A stretch of DNA of 64,000 nt from a virus (Duplodnaviria; Caudoviricetes), in IMG/VR virus record IMGVR_UViG_3300020577_004340, positions 32,001-96,000 of that record; one strand, given 5' to 3'. The notes under the pieces were generated by a model. That model saw only the letters and a program-made list of their open reading frames with translations. It was not told where the DNA came from and did not search any database. Below are positions 27,014 through 55,123 of the stretch, in pieces (position 1 is the stretch's first letter; the number at the start of each line of letters is the position of its first letter). Both the position numbers and the translations under genes were made by a program.

Positions 27014-28198
27014 ATGATAAGTGCAAAAGTCATTAAACATTCTATTACTACCTTTTCCGAAGAAATTGCGACGTTAAAATTAGTATTTCCTAGATTTATC
27101 TTATCTGAATTGAATACACATAGAGTGTTTACTAAAAATTCGGCGTCAAGTCGAGCAATACCATTTCTTAAAATGGTTAAAACAGTAAAAGAAAATACCT
27201 TTATACCAATAGCATATCAGAAGAACCACTCAGGTATGCAAGGTACTGAATATTTATCCAAATCGGTTAAATATGGGTTAACGGCATTTATAGGTACGTT
27301 AATTGATACTTTACAAACTTTTACGAAAGATTCTAAAGATTATGATGTATTAAAGGCGGAAGTGGATGAAAAAGTTGCGATGATAGAAACTACATTGCTA
27401 CCATATAAATTTCAAGAAAAAACTTTAGATGAATGGTGGTTATTTGCAAGAGACAAAGCAATAGAAGCAGCTTGTATTATGTATTGTTTCGGGGTCACTA
27501 AGCAACTCTGTAATCGATTATTAGAACCTTTTATGTGGCATTCAGTTATTTTAACAGCAACTGAATTTGAAAACTTTTTTAAACAAAGATGTCCTAAATA
27601 TGCTCTCTTTTCTGAAAATATTCCTATCGAATTTAGAAGTAAAAAAGATTTACTTAGATATGTTAAACAAGTTGAGGCGCCAGAATTTAAAGATTCATAT
27701 GATAATCTTACACAATTAGAATGGTTGGAAATAAACGAAGGCCAAGCAGAAATACATATGATGGCTCTAGCTGAAGCTATGTGGGATGCTTTAAATGAAA
27801 GTACTCCACAATTACTACAACCAGGAGAGTGGCATATTCCTTATGAGGAATTAATAGATGTAAAAAGTATTCATCCATTAGATTATAAAACTAAAGATTC
27901 ATTTACACCAATTAAAGTTTCTACCGCAATGTGTGCGAGGGAGTCATATACTACAATTGGCGATGAGAAAGAGTTTACTATTGAAAAACAAATAGCTCTA
28001 CATGATAAATTAATTAATTCAGATCCAAAACATTGGTCTCCTACAGAACATTGTTCTAAAGCAATGACAGCTGTAGAAAGAATGAAGTTTCTTGTTACAT
28101 ACGAGGATTCAAAAGGAAATTATTCGATAAAATATGGAGTATGTAGAAATTATACTGGATTTATCCAATACAGACATTTGCTAGATACGGGAGTATGA
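27014..28198 (+). CDS. thyX: FAD-dependent thymidylate synthase (phage ThyX/Thy1 type)
   Basis: PRFI..E.NTHR.F.KNSASSRAIP, KQ..NRLLEP, AQAEI-like, CAR.SY, H.SP.EH. Confidence 0.8.
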   Translation: MISAKVIKHSITTFSEEIATLKLVFPRFILSELNTHRVFTKNSASSRAIPFLKMVKTVKENTFIPIAYQKNHSGMQGTEYLSKSVKYGLTAFIGTLIDTLQTFTKDSKDYDVLKAEVDEKVAMIETTLLPYKFQEKTLDEWWLFARDKAIEAACIMYCFGVTKQLCNRLLEPFMWHSVILTATEFENFFKQRCPKYALFSENIPIEFRSKKDLLRYVKQVEAPEFKDSYDNLTQLEWLEINEGQAEIHMMALAEAMWDALNESTPQLLQPGEWHIPYEELIDVKSIHPLDYKTKDSFTPIKVSTAMCARESYTTIGDEKEFTIEKQIALHDKLINSDPKHWSPTEHCSKAMTAVERMKFLVTYEDSKGNYSIKYGVCRNYTGFIQYRHLLDTGV

Positions 28199-29511
28199 CA
28201 TATATAGAAGAATTATCTGAACATAACATAGATAGTTTGGCTGATGATTCTTTAATATTAATACCAGTTTTATCCGATTATAATAACCATTGGGTTGTTA
28301 ATGATATATCATTTGTGTATGTTTATCATATAATTAAGCGAAAGGGTTATATATTAAATATACATCATAACGATTATTCACCCAACTCAATTAAATTGTT
28401 GGATAGATTGTCTGGCGTTAAATTTATATATAAAAAGAATTTACTCAATCTATCTAATTCATATGATTTGGAATTATGTTATTGGTTTTATTCTAATGAA
28501 CCTGGAATACAATACAGAGTACAGAATAAAATATCTACGTATTATAAATGGTACGGCGATAAAAAAAATATTAATAACATAATTCCAATATATAATTTTT
28601 TGGAAACATTTAATATCATTGTTAATATTTTCATGACAATATACGATGACATTGAATTGAATTTCTCATTAAATTTTTATCAAAATATTTACAATACATT
28701 AAAGACGATTGAAAAAAATGGAATATGTGTTGATAGAAAAATTATATTAAATAAATTCAGGAAGAATGTAGATGTAGTGTATTCGGAATATAACTTATAC
28801 ACGAGTACCGGACGACCATCTAATAGATTTGGTGGTATAAATTTTGCAGCATTGCCAAAAGATAATGGGACTCGTAAGATGATTATTCCTGAAAAAAATA
28901 ACAATATATTAATTGAATTTGATTACGATTCATTCCATATTAGATTGGCATCTAAATTAATTAAATATCGACTACCTGATATGAATTTACATGAATATTT
29001 TGGTATGCAATATTTCGGGAAAACTGAATTGACTGATGAAGAATATACACTTGCAAAAAATTTATCTTTTAGGTTATTAAATGGCGCCCGGAATATTGAA
29101 TTTGATGATATCGTATTTTTTGAAAAAATATATGAATATAGAGAAAAGTTGTGGGATGAATATATTAAAAATGGATATATTGAATTACCATTATCAAAGA
29201 GAAAATTAAAAAAAGAGTATTATGAAAATATGTCTGAATCTAAATTATTTAATTATGTATTACAGGCAACAGAAACTGAATTTAATTCAATAATATTGGA
29301 TAAAATTAATACTTATTTACACACACAATCCAGTAAATTGATTTTATACACATATGATTCTTTTTTAATTGATTTTGATTTATCAGATGGAAGAAAGTGT
29401 ATTGAAGAATTAATAAAAATATTGGATATCAACGGGTTCCATGTTAAAATGAAATGTGGAAATACATATGATGATATGCTTTTAAAACAAATTAATACCA
29501 ATGGAAAATAA
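28195..29511 (+). CDS. short family A DNA polymerase-like protein
   Basis: T.TGRPS, EFDYDS.H.R (motif A), NY..QA.ETE, LYTYDSF (motif C variant). Confidence 0.7.
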   Translation: MTYIEELSEHNIDSLADDSLILIPVLSDYNNHWVVNDISFVYVYHIIKRKGYILNIHHNDYSPNSIKLLDRLSGVKFIYKKNLLNLSNSYDLELCYWFYSNEPGIQYRVQNKISTYYKWYGDKKNINNIIPIYNFLETFNIIVNIFMTIYDDIELNFSLNFYQNIYNTLKTIEKNGICVDRKIILNKFRKNVDVVYSEYNLYTSTGRPSNRFGGINFAALPKDNGTRKMIIPEKNNNILIEFDYDSFHIRLASKLIKYRLPDMNLHEYFGMQYFGKTELTDEEYTLAKNLSFRLLNGARNIEFDDIVFFEKIYEYREKLWDEYIKNGYIELPLSKRKLKKEYYENMSESKLFNYVLQATETEFNSIILDKINTYLHTQSSKLILYTYDSFLIDFDLSDGRKCIEELIKILDINGFHVKMKCGNTYDDMLLKQINTNGK

Positions 29512-31583: not shown

Positions 31584-32786
31584 ATGGCAAAAACTAAAAC
31601 GCCTGCCGTTGAGCCGGTTGTTGTTGAATCACTAACTAATGATTTATTGAAATCATTAAATATAAAGTTTAAGAATCAACCGGACAAGGCAGCATTTTTC
31701 TTAAATGACCCTAATGTTACTTCCGATGTACATAGTTGGATTCCATCTGGAAATGATGTATTGGACATTGCAATAAGTAATCGACCGAATGGTGGATGGC
31801 CAGTTGGAAGAATTGTTGAATTGACAGGGTTAGAGGCTTCGGGCAAAAGTTTATTAGCCGCCCATGCCTTAAAAAATACACAAGCTTTAGGAGGGGTAGC
31901 AGTTTACATAGATACCGAGTCTGCAGTCTCAGAACAATATTTGGCCGCCATTGGTGTTGATATACCTAAATTAATTTATATGCCAATGGATGCCCTTGAA
32001 AATATATTTGAGGCGGTTGAGACTATTATATCCAAAGTTAGGGAATCTAGTAAAGACAGATTGGTTACAATTGTAATAGATTCTATAATGGGAGCATCTA
32101 CTATTGCTGAATTGGAATCTACATATGAAAAAGATGGGTATGCTACTTCGAAGGCAATTATTTTATCAAAGGCAATGCGTAAATTACCATTGTTAATTGC
32201 CAGAGAAAATATATTGTTGATGATGACTAACCAATTACGAGTTAATCTAGGTGTTAGTTTTGGAGAAAAATACAGTACTTCTGGTGGAAAAGCAGTTGGG
32301 TTTGCTGCATCAGTTCGTGTTCGTTTGACAAATAAAAATAAAATTAAAATTAAACAAGAAAACGGATTGGAGGCGATAGTTGGAATTAAAACCAATGCGA
32401 AAGTTACTAAAAATAGATTAGGCCCGCCATTGAGGGATGTTGATTATGATATTTATTTTGATTCAGGGGTGGACAATTATGGTTCTTGGTTGGAAACATT
32501 GAAGGATTATAAGGTCGTAACATCTGGAACAAATTGGTCATTACCATTAACTGGAGATTTGGTTGGAATTGAATTGGTTGACCCGACAACTGGAGAAGTT
32601 AAAACATTTTCCGATGGCGTCATGAAATTCAAGTCTAAAGATTTTAAACAATGGTTGGTAGCCAATCCAAAATTCAAAGATATCTTATATAATATTTTAT
32701 GTGACAAATTGATAATGAAATATAAGTTAAATGAAGATTTTGGGATTGATGATATATCATATGAAATAGACGACAACGACGAATAA
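31584..32786 (+). CDS. recA: RecA/UvsX recombinase
   Basis: GG.P.GRI.E..GLEASGKS, YIDTE, VIDS, NQLR, TSGGKA..F.AS.R, KNR..PP. Confidence 0.93.
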   Translation: MAKTKTPAVEPVVVESLTNDLLKSLNIKFKNQPDKAAFFLNDPNVTSDVHSWIPSGNDVLDIAISNRPNGGWPVGRIVELTGLEASGKSLLAAHALKNTQALGGVAVYIDTESAVSEQYLAAIGVDIPKLIYMPMDALENIFEAVETIISKVRESSKDRLVTIVIDSIMGASTIAELESTYEKDGYATSKAIILSKAMRKLPLLIARENILLMMTNQLRVNLGVSFGEKYSTSGGKAVGFAASVRVRLTNKNKIKIKQENGLEAIVGIKTNAKVTKNRLGPPLRDVDYDIYFDSGVDNYGSWLETLKDYKVVTSGTNWSLPLTGDLVGIELVDPTTGEVKTFSDGVMKFKSKDFKQWLVANPKFKDILYNILCDKLIMKYKLNEDFGIDDISYEIDDNDE

Positions 32787-44226: not shown

Positions 44227-45459
44227 ATGAATAAAAAATTTATTTATTTTCCATCATTCTCTGCAGGGGAAATGGGTGGTGGTTTAAGCAAAAACACAAT
44301 ACTACGAAATGATCTACCATCGAGATTTTATTCAACCGATTTTCCAGAAAAATACCGACATCCGTATTTTTTAACTACTGCTGGCCATTTTTATAAGAAA
44401 AAAAATTTTAAAACTACTTGGGGATTTACTGATAATCCTGATGTTCTGTTATTAGGCGATTCAGGAGGATATCAAATTGCTGCTGGGACTATTAAATGGG
44501 ATAAAAATATTGTCCCAGTTATATTAGATTGGTTGGAATGTAATTCACATATTGCAATGAATTTGGATATACCCCCTAGATTAAAATATGTTGATAAATT
44601 TGATGAATGTTTAGATATTAGCATTCAAAATTTTAAATACTTTTCCGAAAATAGATCTGGGCAAACTAAATTTTTAAATGTTTTGCAAGGAAATTCAGAC
44701 GTATCATATGATAAATGGTATAATAATGTTAAATCATTTGATTTTGATGGGTGGGGTATTGGAGGATGCGGTGGATCATTGTATCGATTTATGGCAGGAA
44801 TAATGGTGTTATTAGAAGGTAAAGAACATTATAATGTCAACAATAAATATTTACATATATTAGGAACTAGTAAAATTATAGATTTTTTGATTCTATCTCA
44901 ATTACAAAAATCATTAGATAAATGTAACTCAAAAATACAAGTAACTACTGACTCGTCAACGCCAAGTCGTGCTACTGTTTTTGGTATGTTTTATAATGAC
45001 GCTAATTTAAGAAGGGGGTCTTTTTCATCAATACATTTTCCAAAAGAAAGAGGTGATTCAATTAAAAATAAGAGTGTACATTCAACAAATTCATTACGTG
45101 ATAGTGTAAGTTTAATGCCTGAAATTATTGAATTTGATACTCTCTTGCAAGGGGCATATACCCAAGATGATTTAATTAATTGGACTAGTGAAGCATATAT
45201 ATCTTTAGTATTGCATAATTTCATGTTCTTCAATTCTATTATTGATAAAATTAATATGTATGTTGATGGGCATCCGTATATTCTTGAACAAGTTATAAAT
45301 CCTGATTCATTTCTCATATTAAAATCAATTGACGAGATGGTGCTGGCGTATGAAAATGGAACTACTCCTCGAAAAGTTTTTGATTCATATAAACAATTGT
45401 ATTATAAATTGTCAAACACTAATATCCCGACTACTACTATTCAACATTCATTTTTTTAA
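44227..45459 (+). CDS. dpdA: TGT-fold 7-deazaguanine insertion enzyme (DpdA-like)
   Basis: GDSGGYQ, M.LD.PP, LNVLQG, GWGIGG, H.LG, T.DSS.P; lies in an operon with folE. Confidence 0.75.
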   Translation: MNKKFIYFPSFSAGEMGGGLSKNTILRNDLPSRFYSTDFPEKYRHPYFLTTAGHFYKKKNFKTTWGFTDNPDVLLLGDSGGYQIAAGTIKWDKNIVPVILDWLECNSHIAMNLDIPPRLKYVDKFDECLDISIQNFKYFSENRSGQTKFLNVLQGNSDVSYDKWYNNVKSFDFDGWGIGGCGGSLYRFMAGIMVLLEGKEHYNVNNKYLHILGTSKIIDFLILSQLQKSLDKCNSKIQVTTDSSTPSRATVFGMFYNDANLRRGSFSSIHFPKERGDSIKNKSVHSTNSLRDSVSLMPEIIEFDTLLQGAYTQDDLINWTSEAYISLVLHNFMFFNSIIDKINMYVDGHPYILEQVINPDSFLILKSIDEMVLAYENGTTPRKVFDSYKQLYYKLSNTNIPTTTIQHSFF

Positions 45460-45468
45460 AATAATTTA

Positions 45469-47565
45469 ATGTATCAAAATATATATTTCGATAAATTCCA
45501 AAATGAAATCCATATTTGGGATGACAAGACGGGGTATGACCGAGTTAAATTCAAAAATTATGCTTATTTATTAAATGATACTGGAGATTACACTACAATT
45601 GATGGGGCAAGATGTAATAAGGTATATAGTTGGTCTGAAACTGCTGTTAAAACTAAAATGGTATGTGAACATGATGTTCCGGAGACAACTAGATATTTAA
45701 TTGATAGATATGGAGATTCAGATGCCGTTTCTGATAATGTAATTACAATGTTCTTTGACATTGAGGTAGCTAAAGAGGGAAAATATAGTACGCCAGAAGA
45801 TGCAAACAATACAATTACATCAATTGCATATTATACTGAATTGCATGGTTACCATACATTGTTATTGGATAAACATAATCCACCTAGAACATACACAACG
45901 ATAATTAAACCAGATAAAAAAGAACTTAGTATAGAGGTTAAAACATTTAATGATGAAAAATCATTATTGTTTGCTTTTTTAAAGGAATACCGAAATATTA
46001 GCCCCCATATATTAACTGGTTGGAATATTGATTACTATGATATTCCTTATTTATACAACAGAATGATAAATGTTTTGGATGTTCAATATGCCAATCAATT
46101 ATCACCTATAAATAAAGTCAGAGTAAAGAAATATGACAATAACAATATAATTCAAATTGCAGGGGTTACCGCATTAGATTACTTGATGTTGTATAAGAAA
46201 TTTACTTATGCGGAGCAATCTAATTATAGATTAAATACAATATCTAATATAGAGCTTAAACGTTCTAAAATAGAATATACAGGGGATTTAGATTATTTAT
46301 ATTCAACTGATATTAATAAATTTATCGAATATAATGTTGTCGACGTTGATTTAGTATTGGAACTAGATAGAAAATTAGATTTAATTAATATAGCTAGGGG
46401 TATATGCCATAAAGGACATGTGTCATACGATGATATCGTTTTTACTAGTAAATATCTGGATGGTGCAGCATTGACATATTGTCGTAGAAACAATTTAATT
46501 GCAACCAGTACCAGAACAAGTGGAGAATCAACAACTGCTGAAGGGGCATATGTAAAAGACCCAACGCCTGGGTTGTATAAATGGGTATATGATTTGGATT
46601 TAACATCATTATATCCAATGAATATTATTAGTCTAAATATTTCACCTGAGACTAAATTCGCAAAAATATTAAATTGGGATGAAGAGGATTATGTTAATTC
46701 CCCTAATAAATTGTATAATATTAAATTATTCCGAGATGATACTGTTTTAGGAAATTTTAGTAATGAATTTGGAGTAAAAAGCGATTCAGTTAGAATATCT
46801 GGTAGCCAAGCTTTGTTGGAATTTGTTAAAAAACATAATTTATCAATTGCATCCAATGGAGTGATGTACACATTAGATAAGATTGGATTGATACCAGCAA
46901 TATTAGATACTTGGTTTGCTGATAGAGATGATTTTAAAAATTTACGAAAGCAATATGAAAAGTCGGGTGATTTAGTCTTGGCTGCATATTATGATAAGCA
47001 GCAATTAATTACTAAAATTATGTTGAACTCTTTTTATGGGGTGTTATTGCTTGAATCATTTAGAGTTTATGACATAGACAGCGGCGAAGCGGTTACAATT
47101 ACTGGAAAATCGGTAATTAAATGGGGAAGTAAAATGGCTAATTATTTCTATAATAAAAAGTTAGGAAATGAACATATTACAGATTATACTATATATATTG
47201 ATACGGATTCGGTAGCGGGTGATTCAAACATTATAGTTAACGGGGATACCCCCAGAACGTTAGATGATGTATTTGCAGATTCAATTAAAAATTCGTATTT
47301 TGTAGACTCCAATCATAGAGAATTTACATTTCCATCAATTAAATTGCCATATTATGATGAATCTACAAAATCAGTTAAATTAGGAGATGTTGAATATATT
47401 GAGCGCCATTACATAAAAAAGCGAAGATACAAAATTACACTAAAATCTGGAAAGCATATAGTAGTGACCGAAGATCATAGTGTTATGGTGGAATTGGATA
47501 ATGGGGAGTTGGTACAAAAATTGACTAAAGATCTAACAATATCCGATAAAGTAATTTCTATTTAA
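45469..47565 (+). CDS. family B DNA polymerase, N-terminal part fused to split intein N (47209-47562)
   Basis: FDIE, GWN...YDIPY, DLTSLYP, K..LNS.YG, YIDTD then SVAGDS...VTEDHS. Confidence 0.93.
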   Translation: MYQNIYFDKFQNEIHIWDDKTGYDRVKFKNYAYLLNDTGDYTTIDGARCNKVYSWSETAVKTKMVCEHDVPETTRYLIDRYGDSDAVSDNVITMFFDIEVAKEGKYSTPEDANNTITSIAYYTELHGYHTLLLDKHNPPRTYTTIIKPDKKELSIEVKTFNDEKSLLFAFLKEYRNISPHILTGWNIDYYDIPYLYNRMINVLDVQYANQLSPINKVRVKKYDNNNIIQIAGVTALDYLMLYKKFTYAEQSNYRLNTISNIELKRSKIEYTGDLDYLYSTDINKFIEYNVVDVDLVLELDRKLDLINIARGICHKGHVSYDDIVFTSKYLDGAALTYCRRNNLIATSTRTSGESTTAEGAYVKDPTPGLYKWVYDLDLTSLYPMNIISLNISPETKFAKILNWDEEDYVNSPNKLYNIKLFRDDTVLGNFSNEFGVKSDSVRISGSQALLEFVKKHNLSIASNGVMYTLDKIGLIPAILDTWFADRDDFKNLRKQYEKSGDLVLAAYYDKQQLITKIMLNSFYGVLLLESFRVYDIDSGEAVTITGKSVIKWGSKMANYFYNKKLGNEHITDYTIYIDTDSVAGDSNIIVNGDTPRTLDDVFADSIKNSYFVDSNHREFTFPSIKLPYYDESTKSVKLGDVEYIERHYIKKRRYKITLKSGKHIVVTEDHSVMVELDNGELVQKLTKDLTISDKVISI

Positions 47566-47581
47566 ACAACATCCAGATATC

Positions 47582-47668
47582 GAGGATGTTCTTATAATAT
47601 GGGAAAGTGATTTTAGAAACAACAAAACTGAAACAATTAAAAAATGTCTAGAATTTATAAACCAGTAA
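47582..47668 (+). pseudogene. C-terminal remnant of a Vsr/DUF559-like endonuclease
   Basis: Alternative frame reads EDVLIIWESDFRNNKTETIKKCLEFINQ*; no start codon; overlaps the IntC start. Confidence 0.65.
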
Positions 47669-48597
47669 CAGATGAAATTTCTTCAATCGAAGAGTTGCCA
47701 TTGGAAGATGTGTATATGTATGACATTGGGATGAAAGATAGTCCCCACACCTTTTTTGCCAATAATATATTGGTACACAACAGTTTATTTTTACCAATAC
47801 TTCCATTATTAAATGATGTTAATATTGAAGAGTTAACAGATACAGAATTAATTGAATTGGCTAAACCATTAGTTAAAGAAGTTCAAGAATTTATAAATAC
47901 ATCATACACACCATATGCGAAGAAATTCCATATGATAGATACTCACCGTTGGGACATTAAACAAGAATTAATTGCTAGACGAGCCTTTTGGATTACAAAG
48001 AAAAGGTATGCTCAATGGATAGTTGTTAAAGAAGGATTTCCCATAGAAAAATTGGATGTGAAGGGTTTGGACGTAGTTAGATCATCATTTCCAACAGCAT
48101 TTAGAAATTTATTAAAACAAGTTTTAATTGACATTTTACATGATAAATCTAAAAAAGATTTAGATATATTATTGTTAAATTTCAAAAAAACAGTTAATAC
48201 CACTGAATTAAATAACATTTTATTCCCTACAGGTGCAAAGGAAATTAAAAAATATGAAACTGGTGTTATAGGTAGAGTTAAATCTGGAACTCCAGCACAT
48301 ATCAAATCTGCTATTAATTATAACCATTTAATGGATTTGTTTAATATTGTAGATATACCAAAAATATCAGATGGGGATAAAATATTATGGGGATATTTAC
48401 ACAATAATCCGTATAATTTCGAATCTTTAGCTATAACTGGTAATTTCGATGATGAAAAGATTATTGAATTTATGGAGAAATATGTAGATAAAAATAAAAT
48501 ATTTGAATCAGGACTGTTAAAAAAACTTCAGGCATATTGGGATGCTATGGGATGGGGAAAAATTACATTTAATTCCAATGTTAATAAATTTTTCTAG
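47644..48597 (+). CDS. split intein C (47644-47781) fused to the C-terminal part of family B polymerase
   Basis: YDI.....HTFFANNILVHN then SLF; KKRYA, KGL..VRS. Confidence 0.93.
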   Translation: MSRIYKPVTDEISSIEELPLEDVYMYDIGMKDSPHTFFANNILVHNSLFLPILPLLNDVNIEELTDTELIELAKPLVKEVQEFINTSYTPYAKKFHMIDTHRWDIKQELIARRAFWITKKRYAQWIVVKEGFPIEKLDVKGLDVVRSSFPTAFRNLLKQVLIDILHDKSKKDLDILLLNFKKTVNTTELNNILFPTGAKEIKKYETGVIGRVKSGTPAHIKSAINYNHLMDLFNIVDIPKISDGDKILWGYLHNNPYNFESLAITGNFDDEKIIEFMEKYVDKNKIFESGLLKKLQAYWDAMGWGKITFNSNVNKFF

Positions 48598-48605
48598 AAA
48601 ATAAA

Positions 48606-48637
48606 TTTGGAAAAGTGAAATAATATTCGTATATTAG
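48606..48637 (+). promoter_or_regulatory. variant Bacteroidota-type promoter
   Basis: TTTGGAAA...N20...TATATTAG. Confidence 0.55.
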
Positions 48638-48658
48638 TTAATAAACAATAATAAAAAA

Positions 48659-49372
48659 ATGGAAAAGAAAAAACTTATTAATTTTATCAATAAATATCAT
48701 TTAGGCGGAACAGTTAATGCCGTGAAAATTAAGAGTAAAGGCGACAAATTATTAACAACATTCACCACAGATTCGAGAACAATTCTTGGATTCGTAGCAA
48801 CTAGTGGAATTCCATTTGATGAATGTGAATTGGGGGTGTATAATACACCACTGTTATTGAAATTGTTAAATGCAATGGATACTGAAATTGAATTAACACC
48901 AATCATTGAAAGAAGTAAATATACTGGTTTAAATTTAAAAGACAAAAGTCTTAAAGCAACGTTTATCCTTTCTGATTTGGATGTAATACCAGATGCACCT
49001 GAATTACAGAATTTACCGACAACTACTTTCGAAACAAATATAACTCCAGAATTTATTTCAAGATTTGCATCAGCAAAAGCCGCATTATCAGATGCTAAGA
49101 CGGTGAGTTTTGTTCAACAAGGTAATGAGATTCATTTGATTATTAATTATGAGGATTTTAATTCAGACAGGATAGCGATAGACTTGGGTATTGAATATTC
49201 CAATCCATTAATGCCACTGAAATTCGATTCAGATGCCTTTTTATCTATAATTAATGCAAATAAAGATTGTACTTCTGGAAAGATGTTAGTTAGTGAAGAG
49301 GGGTTACTTACCTTAACATTTACTGGTGATGGTTTCCAAACCAAGTATCTTTTAGTAATGTTAAGTAAATAA
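48659..49372 (+). CDS. sliding clamp (gp45/PCNA-like)
   Basis: 237 aa; G.Y....LL..L, ...S.EGL....F......Y.LV; lies between polymerase and clamp loader. Confidence 0.7.
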   Translation: MEKKKLINFINKYHLGGTVNAVKIKSKGDKLLTTFTTDSRTILGFVATSGIPFDECELGVYNTPLLLKLLNAMDTEIELTPIIERSKYTGLNLKDKSLKATFILSDLDVIPDAPELQNLPTTTFETNITPEFISRFASAKAALSDAKTVSFVQQGNEIHLIINYEDFNSDRIAIDLGIEYSNPLMPLKFDSDAFLSIINANKDCTSGKMLVSEEGLLTLTFTGDGFQTKYLLVMLSK

Positions 49373-49539: not shown

Positions 49540-50082
49540 ATGGAATATAAGAAATTATTGAGTGAAAATGAAATTGACACTATTGTAGACAGTTTAGCTT
49601 TCTATTTATCGAGGGATTATTTAGATGAAACCAATCAATATTTATTTGTCAATGTATTAGATGGAGGCACTCCTTTTTTTAATTTATTGTATGATAAATT
49701 AGATAACACACGGTTTAAATTAATTCCAGATTCTGTAAAATGTAAATCATATACTGGTGTGAATACAACGGGTTGGAAATTAATACAACCGATTCATAAT
49801 ACCGATGAAACAATTAAGAAAGTTATAATAGTTGATGACATTCTAGATAGTGGACTTACATTATATAATTTAACAGATTATTTTATGGAATTAGGATTTA
49901 ACGAAATAATTTGTGTTACACTATTGGAAAAAGATGTACTTAATAAAACATATCATCCTGTCCCCAAATATATATCGGGTCATTACATAAATGACATTTG
50001 GGTTTGTGGTTTTGGTATGGATTCAATAGATGGAACCCGCAGGGATGCGAGAGAAATATATCAAATATTAATGTTAATATAA
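49540..50082 (+). CDS. hypoxanthine/guanine phosphoribosyltransferase-like
   Basis: VL.GG..F, KSY, IIVDDILDSGLTL, LL.K, V.GFGMD. Confidence 0.85.
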   Translation: MEYKKLLSENEIDTIVDSLAFYLSRDYLDETNQYLFVNVLDGGTPFFNLLYDKLDNTRFKLIPDSVKCKSYTGVNTTGWKLIQPIHNTDETIKKVIIVDDILDSGLTLYNLTDYFMELGFNEIICVTLLEKDVLNKTYHPVPKYISGHYINDIWVCGFGMDSIDGTRRDAREIYQILMLI

Positions 50083-51476: not shown

Positions 51477-52521
51477 GAGAATATATATCTTCGATAATTC
51501 AACTTCTGGACTAAGATATAATATTCAATGGAGTAAGTTTATTCCAGATGAATTACAATCTTGGGGTTATGAAGTTCAGGTTATAAGTGGCCTTGAATTA
51601 AATTACCATAAGTTGGGTTATCGAGGAAATATATTAAATAGTGGCGCCCTAATAACTAATTTAGGGAATCTATTATTGGAAAGTAATTTAACTGAAAAAA
51701 GTATTTTTATATTCCCTGAAGCAAGAAATCCAATGGTCATTTATCTTAATGAATTACGTCAAATGTATGATTTAGATATTACAATTATTGGGTGGTGGAA
51801 TGACCATACATTCAATACCGATGGGAATATACGAAAACAATTTTCCAGAAGAAAACGAGATTGGACGGTTAAAGTTGATAGAGCCTTAATGTCGGCATAT
51901 GATTATAATATGTGTTACACAGATCGACAATATAAGGTATTAAGTTACAACAACCGCCATGAAAAGAATATATATAAATGTTGTTTGCCATTATCGAGTA
52001 TCAATGGAGAAAATGTAGATAGATTGTTAGGATATGATTATACAAAGGAAGACAGAATTATCATTAATACTAATTTTAACAATCGTTATGACCCTGATTT
52101 TATAAAGACATTACAGTTATTATATAAAGATTATGAATTTCATGTAGTACACGAACAGAATTTAACATATAAAGAATATTATCAGATTGTACGTAAGAGT
52201 AAACTTTGTATTAATGTTAATCAGACTGATACTACACCTTGGTCAATTTATGAAAATTTAGTTTTAGGAGCAATTCCAATACTACCTGCCACTGAATTAT
52301 ACACACATATATTTTCAGAAAAACAATGTTTATTTTTTAAAAAACACTTGATGAAAAAACCTTATATTAAATACATGAGAAACACTGAACATATTACAGA
52401 ATATGTTAAACGTTTATTAACCGATTATGACGATATGTATGCGCAATTGGATATTCAAAGCATCCATGACGCATATTTCAATTCAAACGATTTAAAACAG
52501 ATTTTAAATGAGCTTAAATAG
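51469..52521 (+). CDS. divergent GT-B glycosyltransferase-like protein (probable paralog of 43224)
   Basis: LRY..QW N-terminus; LT..EYY....KSK...DT....IYE...LG.IPILP...Y..F matches the 43224 C-terminus. Confidence 0.6.
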   Translation: MSKRIYIFDNSTSGLRYNIQWSKFIPDELQSWGYEVQVISGLELNYHKLGYRGNILNSGALITNLGNLLLESNLTEKSIFIFPEARNPMVIYLNELRQMYDLDITIIGWWNDHTFNTDGNIRKQFSRRKRDWTVKVDRALMSAYDYNMCYTDRQYKVLSYNNRHEKNIYKCCLPLSSINGENVDRLLGYDYTKEDRIIINTNFNNRYDPDFIKTLQLLYKDYEFHVVHEQNLTYKEYYQIVRKSKLCINVNQTDTTPWSIYENLVLGAIPILPATELYTHIFSEKQCLFFKKHLMKKPYIKYMRNTEHITEYVKRLLTDYDDMYAQLDIQSIHDAYFNSNDLKQILNELK

Positions 52522-53140
52522 AAACATTGAAAATACCTTATGGGTAGAAAAATACAGACCAAAAACAATGGACGATTATGTTGGTAATCAATCGATAATC
52601 GATACTATTAAAACGTATATTGAGAATGATGATATTCCAAATCTATTATTATATGGTAGTGCAGGAACTGGTAAGACAACGTTGGGAAAAATCGTAACTA
52701 ATACACTTGATTGTGATTGTCTATATATAAATGCGTCCGATGAAAATAATATTGATACTGTTCGAGATAAGATTAAATCATTTGTTAGCTCAATTGGTTT
52801 TAAGAAATGGAAATTGGTATTTTTAGACGAATGTTTAGAAGCGGGTACATTAGTTCGTATCTTGAGAAATGGGGGTGAAATATCCATACCAATTGAAGAT
52901 TTGGACCCAATTAATGATTTAGTTAAATCATTTAATGTTGATACAAAATGTATTGAGTGGGTTCCGTTTACATTGTATTACAAAGATATACAGAATATTT
53001 GGGAAATTGAATTAGAGAATGGATTTATTATTAGATGTACAGATGACCATAAATGGTATGTATTAGATGACGTTGGAGAGACGATAGTAGTAAAAACGAT
53101 TGATTTACATAAATATGACCATATATTAAGTCCAAAGTAA
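52508..53140 (+). CDS. clamp loader large subunit (gp44/RFC), N part fused to split intein N (52832-53137)
   Basis: LWVEKYRP, G.AGTGKTT, NASD, VFLDE then CLEAGT...CTDDHKW. Confidence 0.93.
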   Translation: MSLNRNIENTLWVEKYRPKTMDDYVGNQSIIDTIKTYIENDDIPNLLLYGSAGTGKTTLGKIVTNTLDCDCLYINASDENNIDTVRDKIKSFVSSIGFKKWKLVFLDECLEAGTLVRILRNGGEISIPIEDLDPINDLVKSFNVDTKCIEWVPFTLYYKDIQNIWEIELENGFIIRCTDDHKWYVLDDVGETIVVKTIDLHKYDHILSPK

Positions 53141-53181
53141 TACATATAAATTTAAAAACATGTTGTATATGTGGTGTTGGT

Positions 53182-54420
53182 ATGACTAAAAATCATTTAC
53201 GTCGGCATAACATATCTAGACGGGAGTATTATGATTTATATGTAAAGAGTGATACTGAAGGTATTTGTAATGGGTGTGGAATACCAACACAATTCATTAG
53301 CTGTACCTTTGGATATATAAATAATTGTATATTATGTTCTAACCGTTTAATAGGAAAAAACAAAGCGGATACAAATAAAAAGAAATTAATAAAATGTACA
53401 TGTAAAATATGTAATACAGAATTTTTAAATAAAATTTTTAGAAATATATGTACTAGTCGTAAATGTCGAATATACATTCAAACATGTCCAATAGATGATT
53501 ATACAAAGGTATCGTTCATTGAATATATGAGTTGCCCATATTGTAATAAAAAATTTAATAAGTTATCCGGTTTCAAAACTCATTTACGTACTCATTTTTC
53601 GTTCGAACGCGTGCCTGAGATTCTACAATATATTGGAATGTCCGTTTGGAAAACGGCTATACCAAAATGTAAATATTGTAATAATTTATTTATTGAAAAA
53701 TATTCCGATAAATTCTACAATTCAGTTGGACAATGTTGTCCGGAGTGTTTTGAGTCCAAGATATGGTTATCTAATGAATTTCGTGACAGAAAGGCGATAG
53801 GTAAAAAAATTGGGGAAACTAGAAAAATTACCAATAAAACTGAAAGAGGTAAAGCTATTCTGAAGAGAGTTGGCGAAATAAATTCCAAGAAAATGCAGTT
53901 ATATTTAAAAACTGATATTGGTAAAGAATCTATGTTATTACGTGCGAAGAAGAATTCAATTAAGATGAAGAAGAATATTGCAAATGGCAAATTCACTCCA
54001 TGTATTACAAATTCTTGGACACATTGGAAATCACAGATAATTTTAGAAGACGGTACAATTAAAAAATTTAGAAGTAGTTGGGAAGCATGTGTATGGAATA
54101 GTAATAGGCATTTGGAGTATGAAACAATTAGGATACCATATCAATACAATGAAGACACTAAAAATTATGTTGCTGATTTTTACGACAAAGAAACCAATAC
54201 TATATATGAAATAAAACCAAAAAAGACTTGGGATAAAGTTCATACTAAAATGGAACAGGTGATATTTTATTGTTCAGAAAAAAAGATTAATTTTATTTGG
54301 ATAAATGAAGATAATATATTATCTTATATAAACACTTTAGATTTTGAAGGTGAGAATTTAACACAATTAAATAAATTATACAATGGAATTACAACAAATA
54401 AAAATAAAAACAATAACTAA
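53182..54420 (+). CDS. free-standing endonuclease (Zn fingers plus TnsA-like PD-(D/E)XK domain) between intein halves
   Basis: Many CxxC motifs; FRSSWE...LEYE..RIPY......Y..DF......EIKP. Confidence 0.8.
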   Translation: MTKNHLRRHNISRREYYDLYVKSDTEGICNGCGIPTQFISCTFGYINNCILCSNRLIGKNKADTNKKKLIKCTCKICNTEFLNKIFRNICTSRKCRIYIQTCPIDDYTKVSFIEYMSCPYCNKKFNKLSGFKTHLRTHFSFERVPEILQYIGMSVWKTAIPKCKYCNNLFIEKYSDKFYNSVGQCCPECFESKIWLSNEFRDRKAIGKKIGETRKITNKTERGKAILKRVGEINSKKMQLYLKTDIGKESMLLRAKKNSIKMKKNIANGKFTPCITNSWTHWKSQIILEDGTIKKFRSSWEACVWNSNRHLEYETIRIPYQYNEDTKNYVADFYDKETNTIYEIKPKKTWDKVHTKMEQVIFYCSEKKINFIWINEDNILSYINTLDFEGENLTQLNKLYNGITTNKNKNNN

Positions 54421-55123
54421 TACACAAACAAGTTCGCCTGTTTATGATTTAACTGTTCCGTCGAATCATAATTTTTTTATTGGAGAGTCGGGGGACATAT
54501 TAACCCACAATTGTGATTATTTGACGACCAATGCCCAATCAGCATTAAGAAATTTAATAGAAACATTTTCTAAGAATTCACGTTTCATTTTAACATGTAA
54601 TTATGTCGAAAAGATATTAGACCCTATACAAAGTCGGTGCACAGCATTTCAAATTCATCCCCCGACACAACAAGATATCGCAAAAAGATTGTTTACAATA
54701 TGTAAGGCAGAAGATATTAAATGTGAATTACCAGATATAGTAACAATTGTTAAAAAGACGTATCCAGATATTAGAAGATCTATAATGTCATTGCAACAGC
54801 AAAGTATTTCAGGTGAATTGAAATTGAATAATGATTTGTTGTTGGAAACTGGCTATCTTGGATTAATATTGACTGAACTATGTAATATTAAAGACCCGAA
54901 GACAACATACAAAAATATACGAAAGATAATTGCCGATTCTAAAGTTAGAACATTTGAATCTTTATACAGATTTTTATATGATAATTTAGATTCTTACAGT
55001 AAAGCAAACCAAGCAAACATTATATTAATAATTGCAAGATATCAATATCAAGATTCGTTCGTTGTTGACAAGGAGATAAATGTAATGGCAATGCTACTAG
55101 AAATATTTTCGGAACTAAAATAA
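54383..55123 (+). CDS. split intein C (54383-54511) fused to the C part of the clamp loader
   Basis: VYDLTV..NHNFF......THN then CDYLT..AQ.ALR..IE.FS, TCNY, SRC motif. Confidence 0.93.
   Translation: MELQQIKIKTITNTQTSSPVYDLTVPSNHNFFIGESGDILTHNCDYLTTNAQSALRNLIETFSKNSRFILTCNYVEKILDPIQSRCTAFQIHPPTQQDIAKRLFTICKAEDIKCELPDIVTIVKKTYPDIRRSIMSLQQQSISGELKLNNDLLLETGYLGLILTELCNIKDPKTTYKNIRKIIADSKVRTFESLYRFLYDNLDSYSKANQANIILIIARYQYQDSFVVDKEINVMAMLLEIFSELK

Follow-up and report, generated by a model that had tools for sequence, protein, structure and literature searches.

The 64,000-nucleotide stretch of DNA analyzed here (the window; positions 32,001 to 96,000 of the IMG/VR virus record IMGVR_UViG_3300020577_004340, Duplodnaviria; Caudoviricetes) carries a family B DNA polymerase (PolB) gene that is broken into two adjacent genes by a split intein. 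The locus occupies positions 45469-48597 (3129 bp) on the + strand; all coordinates are given in window numbering. The break lies within motif C of the polymerase, at DTD/S (in peptide strings, a slash marks a splice junction). From its sequence, the element is assigned to the class 1 (HINT) split inteins with Ser1 and Ser+1 as nucleophiles; it is free of Cys and homologous to the intein of Aes123 PolB1. Judged from sequence and the modeled fold together, it is very probably a functional trans-splicing intein. The locus consists of the following elements.

45469-47565, + strand: open reading frame 1 (ORF1), 698 amino acids (aa), N-extein plus N-terminal intein half (IntN); its end reads ...TIYIDTD/SVAGDS...VTEDHS...DKVISI, then the stop
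45469-47208, + strand: N-extein of the family B DNA polymerase, 580 aa, with the exonuclease motifs and motifs A and B; its terminus is YIDTD of motif C
47209-47565, + strand: IntN, 118 aa (47209-47562) plus the TAA stop, no Cys; Ser1 at 47209-47211, NX motif Arg66-His67 with the His at 47407-47409, N3 (block B) Thr87 at 47467-47469 and His90 at 47476-47478
47566-47643, + strand: spacer between both genes, 78 nucleotides (nt), with four further in-frame stops; an A-rich leader
47644-48597, + strand: ORF2, 317 aa, C-terminal intein half (IntC) plus C-extein; its start reads MSRIYK...FFANNILVHN/SLFLPIL
47644-47781, + strand: IntC, 46 aa, acidic (net charge -5), no Cys; block F Asp27 at 47722-47724, block G His45-Asn46 at 47776-47781
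47782-48597, + strand: C-extein, 271 aa plus the stop, with the +1 nucleophile Ser as its first residue (SLFLPIL), the KKRY motif and the thumb

ORF1 and ORF2 lie in a common reading frame. Five in-frame stops, including the TAA of ORF1, stand between them; those in the spacer are TGA, TAG, TGA and TAA. Since an in-frame TAA is located two codons upstream of the ORF2 ATG, the start of IntC is unambiguous. The nearest IMG/VR polymerases (L011 and L012; 42-46% extein identity) are intein-less and read VIY[VT]DTDSIFCSAVPL exactly where the window exteins abut (TIYIDTD + SLFLPILPL). Because L011 and L012 read DTDS uninterrupted, the intein junction is fixed, with Ser1 directly after YIDTD. Intein-less relatives read YxDTDSIF across this junction. 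The Ser of the C-extein completes DTDS of motif C, and precise splicing would restore the motif as YIDTDSLF in a predicted product of 580 + 271 = 851 aa. The exteins do contain Cys, whereas neither intein half has any. An earlier note on this DNA had reported the two ORFs, the sizes of the intein halves, the junctions, the 851-aa sum and the Cys-free halves, and every number was correct on re-translation. The Ser nucleophiles that it had claimed for both junctions (Ser1 and Ser+1) were read directly from the translation.

The exteins were compared with Pfam families. ORF1 matched DNA_pol_B_exo1 (E = 3.9e-23) and DNA_pol_B (E = 2.2e-22), and the C-extein in ORF2 matched DNA_pol_B (E = 1.5e-5). 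FFDIEV, motif A (DLTSLYP), motif B (KIMLNSFYG), YIDTD/S and KKRY were read in the translation. With exonuclease and polymerase domains, motifs A, B and C, and KKRY present, the predicted product is classed as a T4 gp43-like family B DNA polymerase. ORF1 and ORF2 are the only PolB sequences within the 123,975-bp record, the completeness of which is estimated at ~66%. The only recognizable replicative polymerase of the phage apparently needs post-translational assembly inside its active site. The dependence of replication on trans-splicing, as proposed in the earlier note, was put too strongly; the record is incomplete, and it carries a weakly PolA-like ORF (described below).

The intein halves match complementary parts of the Pfam Intein_splicing profile (PF14890), IntN at profile positions 27-93 (E = 3.6e-8, 33.8 bits) and IntC at positions 121-155 (E = 1.3e-3, 19 bits). 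Taken separately, both halves were below the cut-off of 35.8 bits, whereas the halves joined across the stops exceeded it (49.7 bits, E = 2.4e-14). Among PDB sequences, IntN matched the fused Aes123 PolB1 split intein (9HTH, E = 7.4e-7) and also PI-PkoII; IntC matched PolB16 OarG (8CPN and 8CPO, E = 8.7e-8) and 9HTH (E = 3.5e-3). In the alignment to 9HTH, RH of the window (IERH) lies opposite KH (IMKH), and TEDHS lies opposite TADHS. The IntC end ILVHN/S aligns with ILVH(A)/S of 8CPN and 9HTH, and the context of block F is YDIGM. The NX motif, a His after Arg or Lys, is specific to Ser1 inteins (PMC10189870). The catalytic set of the window intein is complete: Ser1, NX Arg66-His67, N3 Thr87 and His90, block F Asp27 and His45-Asn46 of IntC, and Ser+1. 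The earlier note had called the element a PolB split intein, and the profile matches and the alignment of the catalytic residues with 9HTH and 8CPN bear this out.

Residue conservation was analyzed in an alignment of 41 sequences, the window and 40 relatives. The numbering is that of P0004, the translation of 47194-47802 in which the five stops are read as Gly/Ser. H72, T92, H95 and D177 were invariant, and H195, N196 and S197 were nearly invariant; all columns of the catalytic set, including those of Ser1 and the RH of NX, belong to one of these two classes.

An AlphaFold2 (AF2) model of the P0004 read-through had a mean predicted local distance difference test (pLDDT) score of 89.6 and a predicted template modeling (pTM) score of 0.83, with low confidence in the artificial linker alone. 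When Foldseek was run with this model, 9HTH ranked first (E = 8.4e-13), and the top 50 matches were all intein or Hedgehog/BIL-type HINT domains. VIA-align of the model against 9HTH gave a Z-score of 24.8 and a root-mean-square deviation of 2.2 Å over 170 of 173 residues. In the model, the two halves together form the HINT horseshoe fold. IntN and IntC sum to 164 aa, as compared with 154-172 aa for the contiguous mini-inteins of the family. Since the sum equals the size of these mini-inteins, no intein piece is missing. The split site is typical (IntN 118 aa, IntC 46 aa), the IntN lengths of the family being 115-128 aa.

These features suggest the following course of events. Co-transcription of the two neighboring genes is probable, and each would be translated into its own protein. 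The acidic IntC would be captured by a basic segment in the distal part of IntN (IKKRRYKITLKSGKH), and the halves would fold into the HINT domain. An N-O acyl shift at Ser1 would be aided by NX His67 together with N3 Thr87 and His90. The oxyester would be attacked by Ser+1, and Asn46 of IntC would then cyclise, with the full-length polymerase and its restored motif C as the outcome. This would be the canonical class 1 pathway of four steps, with oxyesters as intermediates. At the same insertion site, the related inteins Aes123, CP21, LCGC14, GOM-OPS-1 and PolB16 perform trans-splicing in vitro in the absence of reductant (PMC11923092, PMC12707363, PMC10189870).

The same split was found in a second strain. 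Logan contigs from two other sequencing runs (L036 and L037) encode a 698-aa protein with 98% identity over the IntN region searched and 96-98% identity over the flanking N-extein and IntN. This gene is followed by a gap of identical length (78 nt) and then by a 317-aa ORF. The second strain differs from the window at 78 of the 3129 positions (2.5% nucleotide divergence), one of which is in the spacer. Synonymous and non-synonymous substitutions stood at 10:3 in the intein halves and 46:18 in the exteins; the numbers are small, and the pattern fits purifying selection on the intein. The next relative, L038 (IntN 48%, IntC 67% identity), is also split and retains the catalytic residues. When the window is compared with L038 or L039, similarity is 48-67% in the intein halves, whereas it is just 33-39% in the flanking exteins. 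This fits a past horizontal spread of the intein by homing.

The second strain bears on whether the split is an artefact, that is, an assembly collapse, an error in sequencing a contiguous intein gene (of a mini-intein or of one with an endonuclease), or a pseudogene of a defective phage. In favor of an artefact, the record is a metagenomic viral contig of ~66% completeness, and both ORFs are in one frame. However, the five in-frame stops rule out a single-nonsense error. The earlier note had considered that the 78-nt gap might be an assembly collapse of a contiguous intein; the identical architecture in independent assemblies of a strain with 78 differences, together with halves that are full length against contiguous relatives, rules this out. 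Moreover, the spacer is explained as the 3′ remnant of an endonuclease gene that has other lengths in L038 and L028 (described below), and the substitutions are mostly synonymous. We regard an artefact of any of these kinds as highly improbable.

Several points weigh against trans-splicing activity, which was deduced from the sequence and the predicted fold. The AF2 model was built with a 26-residue linker that is artificial and with a multiple sequence alignment fitted from relatives. The net charges of IntN and IntC (-2/-5) are less complementary than those of Aes123, in which complementarity is much stronger (+8/-11), and the association of the halves could be weaker. The evidence for selection comprises just 13 substitutions in the intein halves. 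Furthermore, efficiency varies within the family: it is ~30% for Aes, and CP21 and GOM-OPS-1 are aggregation-prone (PMC11923092, PMC12707363).

As long as splicing is deduced in this way, the halves could instead be splicing-dead and act as a non-covalent dimerisation module, giving a two-subunit PolB as in the intein-less split gp43 of some Aeromonas phages. PolBs that are split without splicing do exist; Aes012 and IME13 are annotated 'split DNA polymerase', and a further case is that of Petrov and Karam, as cited in PMC2677866. However, all the splicing residues are intact (S1, NX RH, TxxH, block F D, HN and S+1). They are also kept in L038 at 48% and 67% identity, whereas their loss would be expected if the halves were just a connector. 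In addition, such an enzyme would still have 164 residues inserted into motif C, at its active site. A non-covalent module is unlikely in our judgment, and trans-splicing is the reading that we prefer.

The spacer between the two genes was also read in the next frame.

47555-47668, + strand: Vsr-like homing endonuclease fossil in the +1-shifted frame, 37 codons plus stop, ending ...KQHPDIEDVLIIWESDFRNNKTETIKKCLEFINQ and the stop

The fossil peptide reads FLFKQHPDIEDVLIIWESDFRNNKTETIKKCLEFINQ, followed by the stop. Its frame is without a start codon and overlaps the start of the IntC gene by 25 nt. In Aes123, PTm1, CP21 and seven IMG/VR loci, a gene for a Vsr-like endonuclease of 290-357 aa is located between the IntN and IntC genes. 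The fossil matches the last ~25-30 residues of those endonucleases at the equivalent position (for example, DVFVVWESEFNNEY in PTm1). Its summed score was reached by none of 2000 shuffles and by none of the 497 natural 37-mers of the window. A homologous endonuclease remnant of 67 codons (...KKHPKVKDILIIWENDYRKNK...) was found in the endonuclease-less split locus L038 (6324-6527). Another, of 63 codons (L028 4530-4720), shares 94% identity with the endonuclease of L022, which is still intact, an indication that the 5′ deletion in L028 is recent. At least three lineages (the window, L038 and L028) have kept the 3′ end of the endonuclease gene. The tail may be kept as a leader of the IntC gene, and the nested remnants in the three lineages fit this idea.

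Fractured genes carry an intact free-standing endonuclease gene between the halves, and the window locus has none. We place the locus at a derived stage after endonuclease loss. In gene layout and in endonuclease family, the latter judged from the fossil, it is like the fractured genes of Dassa et al. 2009 (PMC2677866). Unlike in these, a recognizable 3′ remnant of the endonuclease is left here, and also in L038 and L028. The history of the locus may have been as follows. A free-standing Vsr-like homing endonuclease gene would once have stood between the halves in the 'fractured gene' layout. Most of it would then have been deleted; what is left, its last ~32 codons, would make up the greater part of the 78-nt spacer and the IntC-gene leader. 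The locus corresponds to step III of the gene-breaking model, in which the endonuclease is lost and the halves are still adjacent; this step was seen by Dassa et al. 2009 for gp41-7 (PMC2677866). It gives a clear view of how such a locus looks once the homing endonuclease is gone.

Regulatory signals were searched for around the spacer. A Shine-Dalgarno (SD) motif was not found in the IntC-gene leader; SD-like motifs are present in just 10 of the 51 window genes (long ORFs), 41 being without one. Terminator and promoter scans of 45000-49000 gave nothing above shuffles, and none in the spacer. A short inverted repeat was noted past the IntN stop.

47568-47590, + strand: 7-bp inverted repeat (arms AACATCC and GGATGTT) directly past the IntN stop, present in the minimum free energy and centroid folds

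Its region has a z-score of just -0.40, and the repeat is absent from the homologous segment of L038. It is not called a terminator, and no functional role is assigned to it. Hairpins upstream of endonucleases have been described in fractured loci (Dassa et al. 2009, PMC2677866).

The shared frame and the position of this small hairpin right past the stop could be taken to mean that the halves are joined at the level of RNA or translation, by read-through, frameshift or bypass, and that the precursor splices in cis. Such joining would, however, need suppression of five stops, among which TAA, TGA and TAG all occur, and simple read-through is ruled out by their number. Moreover, shuffled sequences fold as well as the hairpin region, no known recoding signal was found there, and the split relatives act in trans (PMC12707363). 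There is hardly any likelihood of a joined precursor, and we retain splicing in trans between two separately made proteins.

The family was surveyed by running HMMER over the full set of 1.84 billion cluster representatives. At least 703 clusters were found at E ≤ 1e-3, 111 of them at E ≤ 1e-10, and the best identity was 56%. The following counts refer to the best 150 of the 703 clusters. Both halves are in one protein in 99, and 48 end exactly at the IntN end and are split. Ser1 is present in all 33 delimitable split N-halves, and Ser1/Ser+1 in 50 of the 51 delimitable contiguous members. Complete absence of Cys is seen in 5 of the 51 contiguous members and in 7 of the 33 IntN halves (~10-20%). 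The earlier note had described cysteine-less split inteins as rare. Ser nucleophiles at both junctions turn out to be the norm of the family; full absence of Cys does mark a minority, to which the window intein belongs without being unique. The novelty that the note attached to this kind of intein was overstated: the relatives Aes123, CP21, LCGC14 and GOM-OPS-1 have already been characterized biochemically (PMC11923092, PMC12707363), and an endonuclease-less layout with a gap of just 47 nt has been published for GOM-OPS-1 (PMC12707363). Members from cultured phages include those of Campylobacter (CP21, F379 and CC_R7), Tenacibaculum (PTm1 and PTm5), PA5oct-like phages of Pseudomonas, Salicola phage SCTP-2, Lak phages and Aeromonas phages.

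Aes123 PolB1 (9HTH): This intein comes from T4-like Aeromonas salmonicida phages, and its engineered forms are the CL and CLm inteins (PMC11923092). As in the window, it is inserted at DTD/S of motif C, has Ser1/Ser+1, the NX K/R-His, TxxH and HN, is split at the typical site (IntN 120 aa, against 118 aa here) and is entirely Cys-free. It is also the best structural match. In contrast, the identity is just 32% for IntN and 44% for IntC, and the Aes123 IntC has 39 aa, against 46 aa here. In Aes123, an intact Vsr endonuclease gene also separates the halves, and the polymerase is split once more (gp43A/B1/B2).

GOM-OPS-1 PolB2, LCGC14 PolB2 and CP21 PolB1: These inteins (PMC12707363) share the typical split, Ser1/Ser+1 and the DTD and S junctions with the window intein. 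GOM-OPS-1 is also like it in the short gap and in having no endonuclease between the genes. Unlike the window intein, all three contain a single non-catalytic Cys in IntN, and this Cys was mutated when they were made into tools. The identity to CP21 is 35% for IntN and 46.5% for IntC; the sequences of LCGC14 and GOM-OPS-1, compared by eye only, are clearly different.

PolB16 OarG (8CPN and 8CPO): The DTD/S site, Ser1/Ser+1, the NX His and homology in the IntC region are shared (PMC10189870). PolB16 is atypically split, after 15 residues, and has two non-catalytic Cys, whereas the window intein is split at the canonical endonuclease-insertion loop. Taken together, the comparisons lead us to regard the window intein as a divergent addition to a known family, its IntN being at most 35% identical to Aes123 and CP21, the characterized members for which identity was computed.

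Other insertion patterns were seen near this site in the family. Three metagenomic PolBs (P0039, P0044 and P0093) carry two inteins two residues apart (...ILVHN/TD/S...), one at D/TDS with Thr at +1 and the other at DTD/S. In Salicola phage SCTP-2 (L010 2501-3001), the D/TDS site alone is occupied (YGD/SVTHD...LLKN/TDS).

For protein engineering, the window intein would be one more natively Cys-free candidate, and the literature calls efficient cysteine-less split inteins few. The census points to hundreds of comparable natural candidates. The value of the window intein would depend wholly on its rate, yield, aggregation and orthogonality.

A second split intein, with Cys1, was observed ~5 kb downstream of the polymerase, where it breaks a gp44-like clamp loader (window 52508-55123). 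The parts are, in order, a 210-aa AAA+ N-part with IntN (Intein_splicing, E = 4e-5), a 412-aa zinc-finger ORF, and a 246-aa ORF of IntC plus Gp44_lid. It is very distant from the PolB intein: the two IntN sequences are 28% identical (E = 0.07), and the IntC sequences give no alignment. The distance between the two inteins fits orthogonality. That the PolB intein is an efficient trans-splicer orthogonal to Aes/CLm, LCGC14 and PolB16, and perhaps in vivo to the clamp-loader intein, is a doubtful though conceivable extension. If it is true, the two inteins would be a natural orthogonal pair inside one replisome. A weak Intein_splicing match (E = 0.0024, 14 bits) in a 242-aa ORF outside the window (G000:C1:26225-26353; L004 1501-1629) may be noise.

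The phage is without a close cultured relative. A megablast search with the locus gave no match among 50,697 phage records, and the best polymerase match was Microcystis phage Mel-JY01 (39%). Besides the PolB genes, the window contains a 438-aa ORF (28195-29508) with sub-threshold similarity to PolA (PF00476, 28.3 bits against a cut-off of 34.3), and this ORF may encode a further polymerase-like protein that is divergent. On either side of the polymerase, the neighboring genes (44227-45459 and 49540-50082) resemble a tRNA-guanine-transglycosylase/DpdA-like gene and a phosphoribosyltransferase, the latter listed as Pribosyltran in the gene table of L036.

The GC content of the window is 26-34%, and its genes lie almost wholly on one strand. 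Low GC content, genes on one strand and few SD motifs are typical of phages of Bacteroidota-like hosts. The scarcity of SD motifs and relatives such as Tenacibaculum phage PTm1 give a hint, and no more, of a Bacteroidota host.

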